A stretch of DNA of 28,845 bases from a virus (lineage: Duplodnaviria > Caudoviricetes): positions 1-28,845 of IMG/VR virus record IMGVR_UViG_3300022895_000023; one strand, given 5' to 3'. Shown piece after piece: positions 3,129 through 22,859 of this stretch; positions within the stretch are counted from its first letter, which is position 1, and each line of letters begins with the position of its first letter. The position numbers and the translations under genes are program-made. Under the pieces are notes generated by a model that had not been told where the DNA came from, ran no database searches, and was given only the letters and a program-made list of their open reading frames with translations.

Positions 3129-6100
3129 TTAAGTTGTTCTTAGAGAGAAACCGCTTCTCTTGTCCAGATCGGATAATTTCTTTTTAATCTCCCTGATATC
3201 AATATTTACAGTCAAATCCATGGCCTCAATCAGTTCTATGATCTTCCGGAGAAGATCTACCATAATGGACAGATAATGATCCGACATGCCTTCTGTAGGC
3301 ATCGCCATAGCTCGGCCAGCCATAGCCTGGACCTGATCTGCCGTATTTACATTACGTCCGGTAGTGCCGACTAGGGACAGCTGCGGGGTTGCATTGCTGA
3401 CAATGGCGCTCATGCTGGAAGCCAGCGGAGCAATGGCGGATCTCATGCCATACTGCACTGCCCTGGTGATTCCCTCCGTAATCTGCATGTTATTGGCAAC
3501 CGCAGCCTTGCCTCCCCAGCTTCCTACCATTTCGGGATTACCATTTTCATTGGCTACGAAAAGGCTACCGGACTCTGGAAATCCACCGGTTGCACGGCCC
3601 TTTACACCTGGGCCGCTATTTACATACCCTTTACTACTTCCCGGACTGGAGGATCCTTTTTTATCTTCTTTTTCTTCTTCATTGTCCTTGGCGCCTTTAA
3701 TCAGGTTCTTTGCTCCGCTTACCACCTTGTCCCAGGCTTCTCCCACTGCTTTCACAACACCGTCGAGCCATTTGGTAACATCTTTCCATACCGCCTGCAT
3801 ACCGTCCCAAAGCTTATTCATTACCGCCTTACCGATTTCCAGCATTTCATCCAGCTTGAATACTTCCTTGATCTTCTGCCAGATTTCCCCGAACCATTCC
3901 TTTATAGTAGTCCACTTTTCCTCAATGGTGGCCTTTACACTGTCCCAAATTTCAGACAGCTTATCCCTGATCGCTTCGAAGACTTCGGCGGCTTTGCTTT
4001 TGATCGAATCCCAGATGTTTGACGCAAGGGTTTTAATACCATTCCAGATCAACTCCCAAATACCTTTTATAGCATCAAGCACAAGATTTACTTTTAAAGC
4101 CATGTACTCTAAGGCAACAGTTATGATGTCTTTTATGGTTTTCCAAATACCGTCAAAAAAAGATTTTATCCCTTCCCAAGCCCGTTCCCAGTCACCAGTG
4201 AATACACCGATGATAAAGTCCATAAGGCCACCTAAAGCCGTTAGGATGTCATCAATAACTCTGCTTACGCTCTCGAAAAAATGAAAAAATCTATCGATAG
4301 CATTTTTAATAAATTCCGCTATAATCGGAGCCGCCGTTTCCATAAACCAAAGGATAAAAGGCAGCAAAACATTTTCCCACAACACAGTTATGGCATCAGC
4401 CGTTTTCCCTGCAAACTCCATGAATTTATCAATCAGGGGAGACAAATATTGTTCTCTGAACTCTTGGAATTTCTCAGATAAATAGGTTAGCACTGGAAGG
4501 AAATGGGTATTATAAAGTTCCAAAAACTTTGTAGCAATCTCAGTAAAACCTTGCTTAAAAGAATCGAACATAGGCTTTACGTGGGCGTCATATGTTTCGC
4601 TTATTTTTGTGAAGACTTCTTCTACAATAGATTTTATTTCGGAGAAGATGGGCTCCACAGCAGAAAAGGTATCTTCCAGTGTCTGCTTAATTAAGTCCCT
4701 GTTCTGAATAAAAGGAGCTGTAATAGTATCAAGCAAATCCCTAGCCAGTTTGCCGACCAGCTCTGTAACGCCCGTAAAAGCTTCTGCAAAAACGCCTTGC
4801 AGATCAGCACTAATTTGCTTTGCACTATCACTTCGAAGAGATGAAAAAATCGTAGCAAATGCCACGCTGAAATTGCCGACGATATCAGCAATACTCCCTC
4901 CGATATCAAACATGGATATCAGATATTCTTTAATCCTACCGCTGTTCTGTTCCAGGAATTTATTAATCCCACCCAGCAGATTATCCGCTATCGTTGCACC
5001 TATAGATGCAAAACTTCCAGCAACCTTCCCCAGGTTTACCGCAATCCTGTTTCCGAATTCCTCTGCGGAGGCCAGGACGGCCGGATCAGTGAAAATGCCT
5101 TTCAGGCTCTCTCCGATGCCTTGTATCGACTGCTTTACACTATCCAGCACAGAAGTATCCCCAAAGCCAATACTGAAGCCTGTCTTAAATAATTCAGCTA
5201 ATTCTTTCGCTCTGTCGATTAGGCCCTGATACTTATTGCTAACTTCATCAACGCCAGAAGTATCAAGGGAACCCATGTCAAACTCATCTGCAGCATAGCC
5301 AGATCCACTACCTGATCCGCCGCCACTACCGGTATCCGGGCTAATGATGTTCAATTCATCGATTCCGGTAGACATTCCCTTGATATCCTTAGCCGCTTTC
5401 TTGGCAGCTCCGCCTGTTCCCCCGATAGCACCAGAAGCATTATCCGCTGCATCGGTGATAGCCTCCATGCCAGAAGCCGCTGCAGCCGATACACCCCCTC
5501 CGGAACCTTTCTTTCCTGTAACCAGCTCCGTAAACGCCTTGAATGCATTGGCAAGACTCATCAGCTTCCCGATGATAGTATTAATGACCTGAATTACCGG
5601 GGTTAGGACATTGATAAGCCCCTGCCCGATGGTAGCCTTTAGGGCATTAAACTGTTCACTTAAAATACGAACTTGGTTCGCCCAGCTCCCGGAAGTTCTG
5701 GCAAAGTCACCTTGGGCAAATCTAAGCTTTTCCTGAACGAAAGCATATCTTAAGGCCACTTTCTCAGCCTCAGACATGGACTTTGTTGTTTTTCCGTATC
5801 CGTTTGCCAATGCATAGGCGTCTAAGGCAGATTGGGTCATAACAACACCCAAATCCTTTAAGCTTTCTGTTTCACCCGTAAAAATGCTTTTCAGCTTGGT
5901 AAACGCTTCGGCCTGGCTTGTATCATAAAAAGATGCCACATCCGCCGCAAGACCTGTAAGGGAGGTTCCCATAGAAGCCGCTGACTTTTCAGTAAACCCA
6001 AAGCCACGAGCCATAGAAGCAAAAACACCGGTATAACGTTTAGCCGCTGTCTCGGACATACCAAATTGCTGGATTGCGTTTTTGGCAAACGAATCTATTT

Positions 6101-6329
6101 GTTTCTCCATGCTGGGTACGGCCTGCTGAATGACGTTATCCACCTCAGCCAGCTGTGAGCCCAACTCTATAGCACTTTTTCCAAAATCAATGATCTTCTT
6201 AACAGCAAAAGCGGCAGCCAGAGCCTTACCAGCTTTCATGGCAAGTCCCTGAATGCCAGCCATCTGCTTATCAAAACTGTTTTTATTTACTACAAGGTCG
6301 AGCCCGATCTGCCCCACGCTGTCAGCCAT
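3129..6329 (-). CDS. Tail tape measure protein (about 1066 aa)
   Basis: Long helical Ala/Gly-rich [18 protein letters not shown] motif, periodic W/F repeats. The likely start is ATG 6329 ([12 protein letters not shown]) after AAGGCAGGTG. Confidence 0.95.
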
Positions 6330-6334
6330 AATAT

Positions 6335-6369
6335 CACCTGCCTTTAGATAAGACAGGCACATCGGCACA
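6335..6369 (-). promoter_or_regulatory. RBS-sequestering hairpin plus tandem TGTGCC repeats in the tape-measure leader
   Basis: TGCCTGTCTT (6350-6359) pairs with AAGGCAGGTG (6335-6344), loop ATCTA. TGTGCC at 6364-6369 and 6356-6361. Confidence 0.65.
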
Positions 6370-6374
6370 GCGTC

Positions 6375-6518
6375 TTAGAGTTTCAACTCAAATTCTTTCT
6401 TACAATCCTTGTTTTTACATTTTAAAAAAATCCCTTTGCAGACCGCATCCTTAGTACGAAACACATTAACCGGATATCCGCAATAGGGGCATTTAACCTT
6501 TATCTTTTCTTTTTCAAT
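6375..6518 (-). CDS. Com-like zinc-ribbon microprotein (47 aa, probable ATT start)
   Basis: Hand translation (M)EKEKIKVKCPYCGYPVNVFRTKDAVCKGIFLKCKNKDCKKEFELKL. AGGAGG lies 9 nt before ATT. An alternative in-frame TTG is at 6551. Confidence 0.75.
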   Translation of the reverse strand: MEKEKIKVKCPYCGYPVNVFRTKDAVCKGIFLKCKNKDCKKEFELKL

Positions 6519-6531
6519 ATTGATCCCCCTC

Positions 6532-6879
6532 CTATCTACACAGCTGCGCAAACATCTGCTCCAGAGCTACCATTTCCTGTTCATAGGTTGCTGGAGCCAT
6601 GGCCTCTGCTTTCCGATTGCGCCATTCATTGTAAATGCGCCTTTGATCGCTATTAAAACTCTTGATAACATTCTTATCTGTCTCTGATCGGATTGCCACA
6701 ATCCGTCCCAGAGGGGTTTCTGGATCGATTCCAGAAAGCAAAATCTTAAATTCATCCCAGACTACTGATTCAAATTCTTTAGTCCGTATTCTCAACCCGT
6801 ACTGCGAAAGGAAACTGGAGACAATCAGATCCCAGTCCTCAAATAAATCGTAGTACGGGTCACAGCTCTCCCTGGCCGT
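6532..6879 (-). CDS. Gp15-like tail assembly chaperone extension (G-T type), probably reached by frameshift
   Basis: Frame is open from 6879 and encodes DPYYDLFEDWDLIVSSFLSQYGLRI...WDEFKILLSGIDPETPLGRIVAIRSE. No start codon precedes the conserved N-terminal part. Confidence 0.8.
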   Translation of the reverse strand, partial: TARESCDPYYDLFEDWDLIVSSFLSQYGLRIRTKEFESVVWDEFKILLSGIDPETPLGRIVAIRSETDKNVIKSFNSDQRRIYNEWRNRKAEAMAPATYEQEMVALEQMFAQLCR

Positions 6880-7159
6880 TTACATCTCCCACGATCAGGC
6901 CAACAGCTTCCTGCACCACCACGATCAGGTCATTAAAGCCAAGTCCCAACTTTTCAATCTCTTTTTTAGATTTCTCTGGAAACATCATGTCGTAAGCTTT
7001 AAGGATCTCATTAACACCTGGGTCCTCTGCACTCATGAGCCCCATAACCTTTAACATCGTGGGAGCGTCGGCATTTACTTCCAGCTTCTTGCCCTTGATC
7101 ATCAATGAGGGGTTCCCCTCAAAAGTCAGTTTCTCTGTAATATCAATTACTTTTGCCAT
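6860..7159 (-). CDS. Tail assembly chaperone (99 aa)
   Basis: Between the major tail gene and the tape measure; AGGAGG RBS. Confidence 0.8.
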   Translation of the reverse strand: MAKVIDITEKLTFEGNPSLMIKGKKLEVNADAPTMLKVMGLMSAEDPGVNEILKAYDMMFPEKSKKEIEKLGLGFNDLIVVVQEAVGLIVGDVNGQGEL

Positions 7160-7632
7160 AAGTTATTTCCTCCTTGTTCTCCTGAACCTGACGCCGCTGT
7201 AAAGATTGGCTTACCCTTACACTTAACTTCAAACTCCAAAGCATCTACTGCTGTACTTTCTCCACCTGCAGGAGTGGTCACGTTGATTATTGCATCAAAG
7301 CTCACTTTTGCACCAGAGGGCATTTCCCATTCAAATGGAGCTACCACATCATTTCCGGACTTCCAAGCAAGACCTGCAATGTAATCATTTCCTGGATCTC
7401 CATAGGTGCGCTTTCCCTGGAAGGAGAAGGACAGCTTCTTGCTGGTCATCATAGCATCACCCCAGCCTCCATGCTCCATGGCGTTCCATTCCTCTACACC
7501 ACCCTCAATGCTGGGGGCGAAGTTCGTTAAATTGGCTATCATGGCCATAGTGTCCTTAAGTCCACCCAAACCGACTTTAAATTTATTGTTATTAACCGGA
7601 TATACCTTTGCAGTACCGTCCATATCTTTCAC
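7147..7632 (-). CDS. Major tail (tube) protein
   Basis: Synteny; FQGKRTYGDPGNDY and LEFEVKCKGKP motifs. Alternative start ATG 7623. Confidence 0.85.
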   Translation of the reverse strand: MKDMDGTAKVYPVNNNKFKVGLGGLKDTMAMIANLTNFAPSIEGGVEEWNAMEHGGWGDAMMTSKKLSFSFQGKRTYGDPGNDYIAGLAWKSGNDVVAPFEWEMPSGAKVSFDAIINVTTPAGGESTAVDALEFEVKCKGKPIFTAASGSGEQGGNNLWQK

Positions 7633-8036
7633 CTGTTCCTTTCAAAAATAAAATCCAGCCAGATCACATATTCATATACCCCATCGTCATCAGTACCAAC
7701 GTCCTGCGGTTCAGGAACCATCAAGCGTAGGAAATTTATATGGGTATCTCCTATGGTCAGGCTGGATACACTTCTTAGTTTCTCAAATAAGCTGTAAGCC
7801 GCTCTCTCAGCTTCGTCTTTGCTTTTGCACCAGTGGACGAGCAGAGAAACTGGCTTTGTATCATAAGTGGTGCATTCGAGACCACCAATGGCAATATTGG
7901 CCGAACCGGTGGAGGGTCGACTATAAACCCCGATGGACTTTTGCTTTTTATTATCCAGCTTACCGATATAAACATTATCGTCTTCAGTAACGGCCAGACT
8001 TGAAATGTACTGGCGGATATCCTTTAAAGACAACAT
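7629..8036 (-). CDS. Tail terminator / minor capsid-3-like protein
   Basis: 135 aa, PQDVGTDDDGVYEYVI motif, immediately before the major tail gene. Confidence 0.75.
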   Translation of the reverse strand: MLSLKDIRQYISSLAVTEDDNVYIGKLDNKKQKSIGVYSRPSTGSANIAIGGLECTTYDTKPVSLLVHWCKSKDEAERAAYSLFEKLRSVSSLTIGDTHINFLRLMVPEPQDVGTDDDGVYEYVIWLDFIFERNR

Positions 8037-8416
8037 TACACACCACCTACTTTCTTATAAAAATTCTTATATATTTTGGGTGCAAAGCCAGCTTTGCTTC
8101 CTCCCAGCTCCCAATCTTCAAACCAGTGGCCTCTTGCATTGGGGTTCTCATCTGTTTGGAAGTTATATTCAGGGTGGAAATATAGACGCCTTGCATAAGG
8201 GGTGCTTAAAACGAGCTGTACCTTCCCTTTAGAGGAATCGGAATAGTCAGCAAAGAAGCTCTCCCCCTGAAGATATCCGGTATCAAAAGGCACGACCTGA
8301 GCCTGGATCACTTCTGTATGTAACGCCTCTACTGTCATTTCCAAAGCAGTTACCGTAGCCTGCGTCAGTTGCCGGATCCGGGGCATGTTCATTTTGACCG
8401 TTGATTTAACCTGCAT
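8036..8416 (-). CDS. Tail completion / minor capsid-2-like neck protein
   Basis: VPFDTGYL and TPYARRLY motifs; synteny. Confidence 0.75.
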   Translation of the reverse strand: MQVKSTVKMNMPRIRQLTQATVTALEMTVEALHTEVIQAQVVPFDTGYLQGESFFADYSDSSKGKVQLVLSTPYARRLYFHPEYNFQTDENPNARGHWFEDWELGGSKAGFAPKIYKNFYKKVGGV

Positions 8417-11601: not shown

Positions 11602-13194
11602 CTACCTGTCCTCCTTAAAATAAGTCAATCCAAATTTATCTGTTAACTGCTCTACTATTCGTTTTTGATATTCGATGGAATAGTCTTGATTATTATTAAT
11701 TCTACCTGACAAATATTCTTCATGCATATCCTTTTCCAGTGCTTTCTGAGTGGCTTCATACTCCTTGTACATCTTCTCTAATGTATTAATAGCCTCCGGC
11801 CATTCTTTGGGTTGTTTCAGTACATATATACCATCACGCCCAATGGCTCTCAACTCTGAAAGTCCAGTATCGCCAAGCATGCTAATGTCATCAGGAGAGA
11901 AGGTTGCTCCGCCAGGATGATTATGAGTTAAAACTCCATCTCTCATCAATGCTGCTTCTTCCGGGGTATAAACGATTTCGTGTTTCCCTCCGTGCTTCTT
12001 AAATAGCTTATTTCCGTAAGCGTCGTACAATATTCCATACTCACTCTTATGTCCGGCGATAGAAGCCTCATCCAACCTTCGCAGCTCAATGGCTTCCTGC
12101 GTCCATCTCTCTGTTTCCATTATATCAGTATTCCGATACTTAGCAAGTCGCTGTTTCCACTCTTTTTCTTTCTTACCATAATTCTTTTTGTTTTCAGGAT
12201 TAAGGGAATACTCAGCCAGCCGTCCAAACTTATCAACCTGCCTCTGGACATATTGCTGATCTTGTTCTTTTTTATAGCCCTTTTCAATAGCCCTAAGTTC
12301 CTCTTTTGTCCAGGTATCATCTGCGGTAGAAATACCTGGGAAGTATGTACTGTGGCTATCCTTACACCGTGGATGATATAGGCCTCTTGCCATTGCCGTA
12401 CTCATCAGAGGATACCTTCCATCAGAAACCTTTCCCCCGCTCCATACATCATCAATCAGGACCTTTCCTACAAAGGGGAGGCATTTGGGGCATGGATTCC
12501 CATGCTTTGCTACGATAACCGTACTGATTCCCCACTCCTGGCGTTTCTCTCCTTCTCCCTGTAGGTAGGCCCGTTTACTAGCCGTCCGGATTGCCATGTC
12601 TGCATAATCAGGCAGAGTATGACGGGCTCCGTTTTTGTACTCAATACAGTTAAGACCTCGTGAAAGCATATCCTTGGTCGCCATATCCACTGCTTTTTCA
12701 TAAGTACCGGCTCCGGAATTTGCATATACCTGGGCACTAAAAATAGCCTTACGATACTGGTCGTTTGCCATTCGCAAGACCGCTGTTTCTGCTTTCTTCA
12801 TATCATTACTGGTTGCCTTGATCAGAGCCTCCAGTTTCCGGGTATTCAGTTTGAAAAACTCTGCCTGCATGGCTGCCGAAGCGGGCTTATAGTTTTTAAA
12901 GCCATTCTTAATAGCCCGGAGGATCTGCTCCTCCTGCTTCATGCTTCCCTGCTGTCTGGCCTGCCAGATCAACTCTCCTATTTGAGCATTGATGCTTTTA
13001 AACTGTTTGCTGTACTTCTTCTGATTTTCCAGTTTATATTTTTCCAGAGCCTTAAGCTGTTCAGTCTGCCACATGGACCACTCGTAACATTCTTTAAGTT
13101 CTTCAGCTCGATGCCGGTCCATATTACGGATCATGGAAGAGATCAGTTCCTGTTCTATGGCCTCAAAGGCAGCCGCGATATCATACTCATTCAT
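11602..13194 (-). CDS. MuF-type minor capsid protein with a C-terminal JAB/MPN-like domain
   Basis: Follows the portal region; CPKC and GLYHPRCKDSH motifs of minor capsid proteins; extension with E...THNHPGGATFSPDD. Confidence 0.85.
   Translation of the reverse strand: MNEYDIAAAFEAIEQELISSMIRNMDRHRAEELKECYEWSMWQTEQLKALEKYKLENQKKYSKQFKSINAQIGELIWQARQQGSMKQEEQILRAIKNGFKNYKPASAAMQAEFFKLNTRKLEALIKATSNDMKKAETAVLRMANDQYRKAIFSAQVYANSGAGTYEKAVDMATKDMLSRGLNCIEYKNGARHTLPDYADMAIRTASKRAYLQGEGEKRQEWGISTVIVAKHGNPCPKCLPFVGKVLIDDVWSGGKVSDGRYPLMSTAMARGLYHPRCKDSHSTYFPGISTADDTWTKEELRAIEKGYKKEQDQQYVQRQVDKFGRLAEYSLNPENKKNYGKKEKEWKQRLAKYRNTDIMETERWTQEAIELRRLDEASIAGHKSEYGILYDAYGNKLFKKHGGKHEIVYTPEEAALMRDGVLTHNHPGGATFSPDDISMLGDTGLSELRAIGRDGIYVLKQPKEWPEAINTLEKMYKEYEATQKALEKDMHEEYLSGRINNNQDYSIEYQKRIVEQLTDKFGLTYFKEDR
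12119..12146 (-). promoter_or_regulatory. Internal sigma-A-like promoter at the MuF/extension junction
   Basis: TTGCTA-16 nt-TATAAT with extended -10 TG (TGATATAAT). Confidence 0.55.
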
Positions 13195-16927: not shown

Positions 16928-17509
16928 TCATAAAGCTCTTTTTAGATAATTACTTCTATACGTCTTATAATCCTTATCTATATCTTTTATAACGCTTAAT
17001 TTTTTATTCATTTTTTTTATAGTATTAGTACCAATTATTGATAAACTTTCAAAAATCTCAAATGCTCTTAATGCACTACCCAATATGAAATGTAATGGTT
17101 TAATAACTATAAGATAAAAAACAAATAATCGTATGTTTAGGCTTTTATAGAAATGAATGCTACTAACATTCATTGACTTTTGCAAAACTTCATATTCATT
17201 AATTAATTTATATACAGAGTCATAGTAACTTTTTACTTTTTCAGGCCTCCGTATAATGTTATTAATAAGTATGGAAAAATCATAATTATTTTTTATATAA
17301 TAAATTTCAAAATTAATATGATTAATCACAAAATTGTACTCTTTTGAGTTTTGATCTACTTCTCCTAGTGTTGCTGCCATCGCTACGCTATCACGAGCTT
17401 CATACATGCAGAATAAACGTTTATCCTCATGTGGTAAAAGAAAACAGTATTTAATTATAAGGAGTAGAATACAAATAAATAGCCATCCACTAGTGCTTAT
17501 CATGTTCAC
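16928..17509 (-). CDS. AT-rich accessory membrane protein (193 aa)
   Basis: Hydrophobic segments at the N-terminus and near the C-terminus; AGGAG RBS; overlaps the upstream stop (GTGA). Confidence 0.75.
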   Translation of the reverse strand: MNMISTSGWLFICILLLIIKYCFLLPHEDKRLFCMYEARDSVAMAATLGEVDQNSKEYNFVINHINFEIYYIKNNYDFSILINNIIRRPEKVKSYYDSVYKLINEYEVLQKSMNVSSIHFYKSLNIRLFVFYLIVIKPLHFILGSALRAFEIFESLSIIGTNTIKKMNKKLSVIKDIDKDYKTYRSNYLKRAL

Positions 17510-20824: not shown

Positions 20825-21973
20825 TTACACGATATACCAATCTTCATTTCTCACCTGGTAAGCATCACCCAAATGTATCATTTCTGGATAATTCTCACGG
20901 GCCGTCTGTATGGCGTACTTATCTATTTCCGTTGCATAATATTTGCCAACTCTCGCCCCCAGTTTATCCAAGGCTATATGTCCGCAGCTCATGCCGTCAT
21001 ACATTGACATTACGCTTACCTCTTCCGTTGTGATTCCCGGAACAAAGGAAAGAATATGGGCTATTACATCAACTGTCCAACCATTCCCCAGCATTTTATA
21101 AGCCTGTGTGTTGCTGACCGGGAAGATATACGAATCTGGAACGGTCTGCAATCTCATGCACTCTTTTACAGTCAATTTACGGATTATGTAATATCCATCG
21201 GGTAACTTTATCGGATACTGCTCACCTTTAATGGTTATTTGTCCATTTACCACCTCATAAACTGGATAATCCTTTCCACTGCATGGTATTGCAATGCTTT
21301 CCATGCAACCGCTTGCCCTTATTGCTACGGCTTTTGCATTTATATCGTATATCCTTTGTCCTTGGCCTCCTGTCTTACCAAATTCCGCTATTCTGTGAGG
21401 TATTGCATATAATCCAGTCTTTGCACCTACTCCTCCACCATTTCCGCAAAGAGTGACCGACTTACCATCTGGTGAATATACTCTATACTGCTGGCTATCA
21501 AAATCAGTATTCTGTGCTTCACTTTCGATCGTTCCAATGCGCACTGGTTCTGCCGCCATGTGCCTGGAATATGAATGCTGACTTTTTGGGTTGTAAGTGC
21601 CGGCAGTTTTATAATAATTTGCATCTAATGTATAACTTTTTTCCTTCCATGCCATTCCGGTTTCCAGAATATCTTTCAACAAAATCCCTTTATCTTCTGG
21701 CTGTGTCACGCCCGGAATATTAGTCCAGTACAGCCTATTACGGTTTTACGCTGATACTAAGGAGGAATTAATTAATATCGGTTCAACACCCAACTCCTTT
21801 GTGATCTGATCCCTGATTGCTGGTGACATGGATTTATTATTCTCGTAAAGGAAATAATCTGGCTGGTACTTTTCCAGCCCTATAATGTAATTCTCAAATA
21901 ACTCCCACCCTAATCCCGATGGCTCTGTTTCTCTGTTCTTGGTCTGTGCTATCGCTTTCTCGCTGCGCAGCAA
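20825..21973 (-). pseudogene. Circularly permuted C5-cytosine DNA methyltransferase, inactivated
   Basis: One frame interrupted by TAA at 21746-21748 (LVSA*NRNRLYW). Motifs VI, VIII, IX and X precede motifs I-III. No PC catalytic motif IV. Confidence 0.85.
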
Positions 21974-22058
21974 ACCTCTTACTCCTTTCCTGTTATTCAG
22001 TTAAATATGGGTCTTACGTAGCAGGCATCAGCACCGGCGCACTCGCTTCCCGGCCTGC

Positions 22059-22859
22059 CTATAACTCCAACCTCATCTGCTCCGCCGGTTCAAAGTTCAG
22101 CCACAACGTTTCCACTCGTCTAAGATTATTCTGCGCCCTGGCCGGCATCTGCAGTTTATGCCAGTCCTTCAGATACCGCTCATACAACTCACAATCATAT
22201 CCGGAAAGCATAACCTTAGCCCGGCTGCGGATTACCTTCTCCAGCAGCTCCTCATGATCCTGATCAGACATTTCATGCCGATACTGTTTCCGGCCCCGTG
22301 TGGATAATACATAAGGCGGATCCAGGTAGATCAGGACATTCTCATGGTCAAAGGCTCTGATCAGCTCCAATGCCGGTCTGTTTTCAATTTGAACACCTTT
22401 CAGTCTGGTTGCCATTTCTCCCAATGATTCCGGCAACTGATTCCAGTACTGTACCGCATAGTCCGCTTCCCTGCCTTGTACGTCTTTCTTCCAACCGCAA
22501 TCCCCATTCAGTCTAAATCCGTGGCTCTGCATGGATCTTACTGCAAAGTATCCTGCCTGCTCCACTGGGGACTGGGGCCCTTTCTGAAAGGTTTCCTCAT
22601 AGACTTGTCTGGAATACGGCGTATATGTAAGCCAGCGCTGCAACTCCTGACAGCTTTCCGGATCATGGATCACCCGGAAGAAATTAACCACATCACCGTC
22701 AAGATCATTCACTGTCTCAATCTTGGAAGGGGGCTTCTCGAAAAGGACAGCCCCTCCCCCAAAGTACGGATCTAAATAGCTGTGATGCTCGGGCATATTT
22801 CCGATTATCCAGGAAGCGATCCGTTTCTTGCCTCCGGGATAATGTAATAATGACTTCAT
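22059..22859 (-). CDS. DNA adenine methyltransferase (Dam/D12-class)
   Basis: YPGGK, DPYFGGGAV, VNDLD and YLDPPY motifs. Confidence 0.93.
   Translation of the reverse strand: MKSLLHYPGGKKRIASWIIGNMPEHHSYLDPYFGGGAVLFEKPPSKIETVNDLDGDVVNFFRVIHDPESCQELQRWLTYTPYSRQVYEETFQKGPQSPVEQAGYFAVRSMQSHGFRLNGDCGWKKDVQGREADYAVQYWNQLPESLGEMATRLKGVQIENRPALELIRAFDHENVLIYLDPPYVLSTRGRKQYRHEMSDQDHEELLEKVIRSRAKVMLSGYDCELYERYLKDWHKLQMPARAQNNLRRVETLWLNFEPAEQMRLEL

Follow-up and report, generated by a model that had tools for sequence, protein, structure and literature searches.

The tape-measure protein (TMP) gene of this tailed phage is preceded by what is probably (with a probability of about 0.7) a self-contained and optional cassette for its translational activation, similar in design to the system of phage Mu in which the Com protein switches on the translation of mom. 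By analogy with Com, the product of a small zinc-ribbon gene most likely binds the leader RNA of the TMP gene and switches on its translation. In the stretch of DNA analysed (28,845 nucleotides; hereafter the 28.8-kb window, or the window), every element of the switch locus is carried by the minus strand (Table 1), within a tail module whose order is of the siphovirus type: tail tube, chaperone G, chaperone T, small ORF and tape measure. The TMP is identified by its match to phrog_1535 (E 1.3e-128), and chaperone-like matches are found upstream (phrog_8300; phrog_8355 and phrog_706; and, weakly, Phage_Gp15). The unannotated 47-aa zinc ribbon that a preliminary description had placed between the chaperone and the tape measure is present, with its CPYC and CKNKDC motifs at codons 10-13 and 34-39, and the two TGTGCC repeats reported after its stop codon have been found as well.

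Table 1. Features of the switch locus in the window; ON and OFF denote the two alternative predicted folds of the leader RNA.
Feature	Position	Strand	Remark
Tail chaperone G-like gene	6860..7159	-	by position after tail tube gene
Tail chaperone T-like frame (Gp15-like)	6532..6861	-	directly upstream of zinc ribbon
AGGAGG, zinc-ribbon gene Shine-Dalgarno	6528..6533	-	9 nt before ATT; overlaps chaperone stop codon
Zinc-ribbon gene, 47 codons/47 aa, CCCC (C10, C13, C34, C39)	6375..6518	-	AUU (ATT) start
ON-hairpin outer stem P1, 5' arm UAAGACG	6371..6377	-	contains zinc-ribbon stop codon
Half-site 1, UGUGCC	6364..6369	-	seen in the sequence
Half-site 2, UGUGCC	6356..6361	-	inter-site junction CC-GAU-GUG
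P1 3' arm UGUCUUA	6349..6355	-	doubles as OFF-hairpin anti-SD strand
Tape-measure Shine-Dalgarno region AAGGCAGGUG	6335..6344	-	paired in predicted OFF state
Complete OFF hairpin	6315..6373	-	predicted fold; covers SD, AUG (6329-6327) and first TMP codons
TMP gene, 1066 aa from AUG at 6329	3129..6329	-	putatively gated gene

Other features of the window have also been observed. The chaperone T frame is +1/-2 relative to that of chaperone G (6872-6860, minus strand), and a GGGAGAG just before the G stop codon is kept in 33 of 35 distinct junctions, with GGGGGAG in the other two; this sequence is a candidate -2 frameshift site, a type of site known from phage Mu. The minor capsid protein (11602-13194, minus strand) matches Phage_min_cap2 over residues 6-352 and is extended at its C terminus by about 170 aa that include an HNHP motif. 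Adjacent cytosine (PF00145) and adenine (PF02086) DNA methyltransferase genes lie at 20825-22859 (minus strand), and tandem half-sites are absent near these methyltransferase genes of the window.

The zinc-ribbon gene is real and widespread. Three scans for relatives kept 80 of 86, 80 of at least 249 and 80 of 96, and the named hosts among the relatives kept are chiefly Lachnospiraceae and other Clostridia; a profile found 783 proteins (247 representatives at 50% identity), and a single metagenome scan gave 4 loci, for which parsing yielded no zinc-ribbon rows. RNA runs gave low-depth contigs only. Across 32 sequences, four Cys do not vary, nor do one Pro, Gly, Phe and Glu. The window protein is modelled by AlphaFold2 with a pLDDT of 90.1 and four beta strands, the four-strand ribbon appearing in both models run, and the predicted structure has the four-cysteine zinc-ribbon fold of the Com type. 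PDB sequence and fold searches with the zinc ribbon yielded nothing beyond generic zinc ribbons, Foldseek gave no match at E <= 0.001, and the window gene matches phrog_5602 weakly. Its neighbour in the ESM Atlas (0.93) is Cys_rich_KTR (PF14205; KTR below), a family of small zinc ribbons of Clostridia; PF14205 has no match to the window protein at E <= 1, and 4 of 129 distant members of the family match PF14205 over nearly the full length, under the cut-off. Across 58 dereplicated loci, the only start codon backed by a Shine-Dalgarno (SD) sequence is AUU, AUA or AUC in 21, a canonical candidate exists in 30, and 7 have none. In a separate observation, two zinc ribbons of the window's type stand in tandem within one frame of 110 codons (L510:1516-1780), without half-sites within 150 nt of the first ribbon.

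In the window, the 10-bp stem previously proposed to bury the TMP SD, TGCCTGTCTT (6359-6350) with AAGGCAGGTG (6344-6335), can form, with 3 G-U pairs. The minimum-energy fold is slightly shifted in register and longer, buries the AUG too and pairs half-site 1 with TMP codons. The 71-nt fold is predicted at -29 kcal/mol (z = -4.95, with none of 200 shuffles as low); for its 51-nt core by itself, z = -2.07. Opening the TMP leader from SD to start is computed to cost 17.3 kcal/mol, whereas 1.2-9.5 kcal/mol suffices at 19 other starts correctly placed in the window. A terminator role of the window hairpin was rejected: a U run is lacking, and no terminator-like site was found in 6000-8200. For comparison across loci, 236 of 239 records yielded a parsed zinc ribbon (the Mu control being among the misses) and, together, 125 distinct leaders; removal of those without a clear long downstream ORF and of three with mis-assigned starts left 114, and dereplication at 80% identity or less left 58. 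The start site is computed to be occluded in all 58, with a median opening cost of 15.7 kcal/mol, which falls to 7.8 with shuffled upstream arms and to 5.6 when the half-sites are kept single-stranded; every one of the 58 lies above its shuffled mean. In nine loci that have no cassette, TMP starts are predicted to be open (median 5.1 kcal/mol). All three frames occur among the gaps between stop and start (26, 21 and 11 of 58), and a zinc ribbon-TMP fusion by readthrough or frameshifting was rejected.

The conservation of this SD-hiding stem, a check named in the preliminary description, has thus been borne out for occlusion, whereas at the level of single pairs the covariation is weak because the register of the stem varies. 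The alignment consensus of the OFF stem holds only 3 invariant pairs, and the named lower stem is 75.6% paired, a value equalled or passed in 40 of 500 shuffles, with one slid control higher in covariation. When arms were swapped between leaders, the native combination was more stable than the additive expectation in 54 of 58 (46 of 58 for the inner stem), but the native partner came out on top in no more than 6 of 58; on the whole, this test speaks for the OFF stem. In addition, the central base of half-site 1 tracks its TMP-codon partner in the 20 informative leaders of the 58 (Fisher p 0.01, kinship ignored).

The repeats are conserved in homologous loci, as had been expected: under a loose pattern, all but one of the 125 distinct leaders (124) carry tandem half-sites, the exception being interrupted where its contig ends. 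The window has a single tandem GWGCC core, where chance alone would give 0.65 occurrences of the core and 0.035 with an enclosing stem of at least 5 pairs; therefore, the repeats by themselves are within chance in one genome, and the case rests on conservation across loci. Extra tandem cores elsewhere in the loci are at about chance level (9 in 698 kb). Both half-sites are enclosed by a hairpin, new here, that is predicted to free the SD as an alternative to the OFF fold, and the strongest covariation belongs to this ON hairpin rather than to the SD-hiding stem of the earlier proposal. Subtype A, the commoner one, is represented by 90 distinct instances with 37 different outer-stem combinations, and in it RNAalifold found, unaided, a five-pair stem P1 around both half-sites. 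Over the 37 rows, pairing in P1 amounts to 95.9% and double changes number 43; none of 500 shuffles, and none of 5000 in a separate shuffle test, does as well, and slid controls give 23-49%. These figures are inflated and are not probabilities, as the rows are kin and were chosen as distinct P1 combinations. All 37 rows share the closing C-G. The window is a case of subtype B, which comprises 41 distinct instances, has the same folding and is nearly invariant, with compensatory changes in two loci (L070, L229). R2, the subtype-A model, has no match in the window or in KTR or Com loci; Rfam gave only a chance match in window positions 5800-7300 (E 3.6), and one tRNA and nothing else in 12 related loci. 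Since the 3' arm of P1 is also the anti-SD strand, the ON and OFF folds would be mutually exclusive. Enforcing the ON hairpin lowers the computed opening cost of the window start from 17.3 to 2.6 kcal/mol; the OFF fold is nonetheless predicted to be about 20 kcal/mol more stable (-30.9 vs -11.3 kcal/mol). The apical junction GC[CT]-N1-5-G[AT]G is present in 57 of 58 leaders, at a median of 37 nt past the last Cys.

These features also bear on whether the repeats are a DNA site for a zinc-finger transcription factor of the Ogr/Delta kind. Of 32 family members, 7 do match Ogr_Delta weakly, the best at E 3.5e-5, one Foldseek row bears that label, and Com itself is termed 'DNA-binding' in NCBI-style labels. 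Such a DNA site is highly improbable, however, given that P1 covaries and employs G-U pairs, that the spacing of the half-sites is not fixed (1 to 5 nt), that the sites are located in SD-hiding stems or terminator bases, and that no promoter-like site was seen at the window repeats; the window protein scores 14.3 bits against PF04606, under the cut-off of 26.3. A second possibility is that the RNA-bound protein is a repressor or autoregulator, which would stabilise the OFF fold and cap the amount of TMP. The activating sign of the regulation is itself a putative one, and in one clade an identical tandem core lies over a chaperone-gene AUG (L073, L076, L078 and L497). We consider this reading improbable, because start sites are predicted to be open in cassette-less relatives, so that the default with the RNA would be OFF and would need relief, and because the half-sites are paired in the OFF fold and only the ON hairpin would show them in a Com-like loop; Com, according to passages of the study concerned, binds its motif weakly in duplex (PMC6483171). 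The core of that clade, GAGCCTATGAGCC, covers the AUG of a chaperone-position gene (DUF6673) at L073:355-367, L078:1980-1992 and L497:531-543, and also in L076, and the same protein might there block the chaperone start while opening the TMP start.

Gene and RNA have been gained or lost together. In a control set independent of the zinc ribbon, formed by chaperone-anchored loci (80 kept of 259), 47 of the 56 distinct rows have both the gene and the tandem sites, 9 have neither and none is discordant; a further locus outside these rows (L250) also lacks both. Six changes are needed on the tree of these rows, a single origin of the cassette-less rows is rejected (p-AU 8e-5), and, besides the repeated gain or loss, subtypes A and B have been swapped among close relatives. 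In close relatives without the cassette, the chaperone stop runs directly into the TMP SD, and such loci resemble clean joins of the two SD sequences. The cassette is therefore optional. Starting from the motif alone, a scan gave at least 120 stretches, 76 of them with a four-Cys frame upstream (one spurious); among the matches listed, the genuine loci are followed by TMP-like N-termini, as judged by eye, except for one cut by its contig end, and the remaining 44 stretches are chance-like, with no TMP behind. The cassette is not TMP-specific either, since in three loci (L481, 2540-2680; L482, 942-1105; L511) it is followed by a terminase large subunit with a Cys-rich N-terminus, the second half-site of L511 starting a terminator-like hairpin. 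In L480 and L484-486, unrelated genes intervene between the chaperone and the zinc ribbon, which thus stays with the gated gene, and the gated TMPs fall in different PHROG families. Another example is RG-TP1, an induced Ruminococcus gnavus phage, where an unannotated cassette precedes the annotated tape measure; its family member has 48 aa and the full RNA (L527:1477-1623; PQ571303.1, ~16977-17123). The earlier idea of a Com design gating a structural gene is supported by the conserved repeats, the occlusion and the 47/9/0 co-occurrence, and has to be amended in that the cassette is optional and also precedes terminase genes.

The same mobility would suit a near-neutral addiction cassette that locks the next gene, brings its own key and spreads by recombination without benefit to the phage: gain and loss recur, subtypes A and B are swapped among close relatives, and the cassette-less loci look like clean SD-to-SD joins. 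Its retention before unrelated TMP families and terminases, and nearly always before a few structural genes, makes this rather unlikely; it would be compatible with the same binding mechanism, only the purpose being different. Slightly less credible is translational coupling alone, in which terminating ribosomes would melt the OFF hairpin and the peptide would be irrelevant or a zinc- or cysteine-sensing leader. In most loci the stop codon does lie within the 5' arm of the hairpin, a modelled ribosome footprint reaching stop+15 cuts the median opening cost from 15.7 to 7.5 kcal/mol, and the KTR ORF extends into a terminator arm, as in classical attenuators. However, 9-10 kcal/mol would remain in the window after the modelled footprint, and weak AUU starts would bring little ribosome traffic. 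Moreover, the RNA is intact 26, ~56, 69 and ~120 nt past the stop in four loci (L355, L162, L409 and L067, respectively), two of which have their own intervening hairpin, so that coupling alone is insufficient; it also leaves unexplained the invariant half-sites, the covarying alternative hairpin and the conserved four-Cys fold.

For a Com-type activator, the following sequence of events can be proposed. In the late mRNA, the TMP start would be closed by default: the SD and AUG would be taken up by half-site 2 and the bases after it, the first TMP codons by half-site 1. The alternative hairpin could form first during transcription, because its 3' arm ends at 6349, before the SD is made, and its completion by then would favour co-transcriptional capture. 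Once formed, this hairpin, a putative structure supported by covariation, would sequester the anti-SD strand, display both GWGCC half-sites and carry CC-N-GWG in its apical loop. The zinc ribbon would then bind and hold it, and ribosomes could load on the TMP SD. Since the activator is encoded on the same mRNA, often with an AUU, AUA or AUC start, it would accumulate slowly, and TMP synthesis would lag behind that of the chaperones and the tail tube. RNA binding, the sign of the regulation and the timing role are what we infer by analogy with Com. The gap of about 20 kcal/mol between the folds is more than one small protein should supply at equilibrium, and thus kinetic capture, two copies of the protein or help from the ribosome would be needed.

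The Com target has been described, in passages of the corresponding study, as a SELEX core GAG(N)2CC in two copies, the site being proposed as CC(N)2-3GAG within the loop of a hairpin that has C-G as its closing pair and adjoins the mom start-codon stem (PMC6483171). Like Mu Com, the window protein is a small CCCC zinc ribbon encoded immediately before its putative target on one mRNA, and a bipartite G-W-G...CC site lies a few codons past the last Cys, with CC-N-G[A/U]G in a loop that is predicted to be closed by C-G and resembles that of Com; again as for Com, the site overlaps a stem predicted to hide the SD and start of the next gene. The window junction CC-GAU-GUG is one base off the Com CC(N)2-3GAG, and the junction is present in 7 of 9 Com loci, 22-71 nt past the last Cys. 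On the other hand, the Cys spacing differs (C-x2-C-x20-C-x4-C, against C-x2-C-x16-C-x2-C in Mu Com), there is no C-terminal tail, the site is at or after the stop codon instead of within the ORF, the GAG of Mu Com is replaced by GUG in 40 of the 57 leaders (GAG in the other 17), a covarying outer stem P1 surrounds both sites, and the target is structural (tape measure or terminase large subunit) and not mom or a DNA-modifying enzyme.

Regarding ancestry, PF10122 (Zn_ribbon_Com) has no match at E <= 1 in the window, where positive controls reach E of about 1e-9, and is absent from the 25 commonest families matched by 32 members. With hhalign, the family reaches 2% against Mu Com on its own, and 54% (E 1.3e-4) when an alignment of 7 Com sequences is used. 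The profile links, which are weak and built on shallow alignments, form a triangle whose other sides are 72% for family-KTR and 89% for KTR-Com. One family member (P0256) matches phrog_6417, a 'translational regulator' (E 1.9e-4). CxxC ribbons resemble each other generically and the fold is prone to generic matches. The Com-type design proposed earlier is to be amended in that the protein would work like Com and is at most a distant relative, with no Pfam Com match; common descent of the window family and Com appears likely. Genes similar to com have been reported, in parts of the works cited, before methyltransferases, tailocin cargo and lytic genes (PMC3299994, PMC6240691, PMC4684702). In the passages concerned, those of Pseudomonas (tailocin cargo, bacteriocin, lysis) are small, often unannotated and placed before non-mom genes, as in the window, and are PF10122 members, unlike the window protein; no RNA site is described there (PMC6240691, PMC4684702). 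Interruption of a com homologue by a stop codon left expression of the downstream lscB unchanged in Pseudomonas syringae, according to a passage of PMC3899960, which calls for caution in inferring function from position.

Half-sites have been found beside KTR genes as well. Of 301 genomes of the class, 33 gave matches to a profile built from distant members, which retrieved KTR genes, and two or more half-sites occur within 150 nt of the last Cys in 23 of 30 profile loci, several of them Cys_rich_KTR genes. As in the window, KTR genes precede two half-sites (GAGCC), AAGACGC-W-GWGCCGAT is common to both, and a P1-like stem of at least 5 pairs is found in 9 of 14 distinct instances. Unlike in the window, the second GAGCC is the base of a long terminator-like hairpin followed by a U run in 14 of 14 instances; because the half-site lies in the base of an apparent intrinsic terminator, the output would be antitermination. 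Among the KTR loci (L470-L478 and L514-L526), ABC transporters come next in L476 and L477, and a hexapeptide-repeat transferase follows the KTR-like gene of L517. Another family zinc ribbon is followed by four consecutive GAGCC half-sites and then a terminator-like hairpin (L501:1644-1720). Somewhat short of an even chance, in our estimation, is the wider view that a single superfamily of portable microprotein + GWGCC-hairpin positive-feedback switches unites the window family with Cys_rich_KTR and Mu Com. If this is true, the superfamily acting on an SD-hiding stem would time the translation of tape measures and terminases in clostridial phages, one clade also blocking a chaperone start, while acting on a terminator it would make KTR proteins antiterminators of accessory genes in gut Clostridia.

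Matching of tape measure and chaperones in tailed phages is usually credited to the G/GT frameshift. The cassette described here points to a second, protein-gated layer on tape-measure translation itself. In agreement with the preliminary description, no Com-type control of tape-measure or terminase translation was found in searches of open full texts, and the same searches yielded no function for Cys_rich_KTR, a Pfam family for which a possible function is now offered. Such genes escape annotation, being short and often starting with AUU; the one of phage RG-TP1 is unannotated. The pairs of close relatives with and without the cassette, together with the induced Ruminococcus gnavus phage, make the hypothesis directly testable. 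These loci also provide small protein-RNA pairs from nature that may serve as switches, with either translation or termination as the output.
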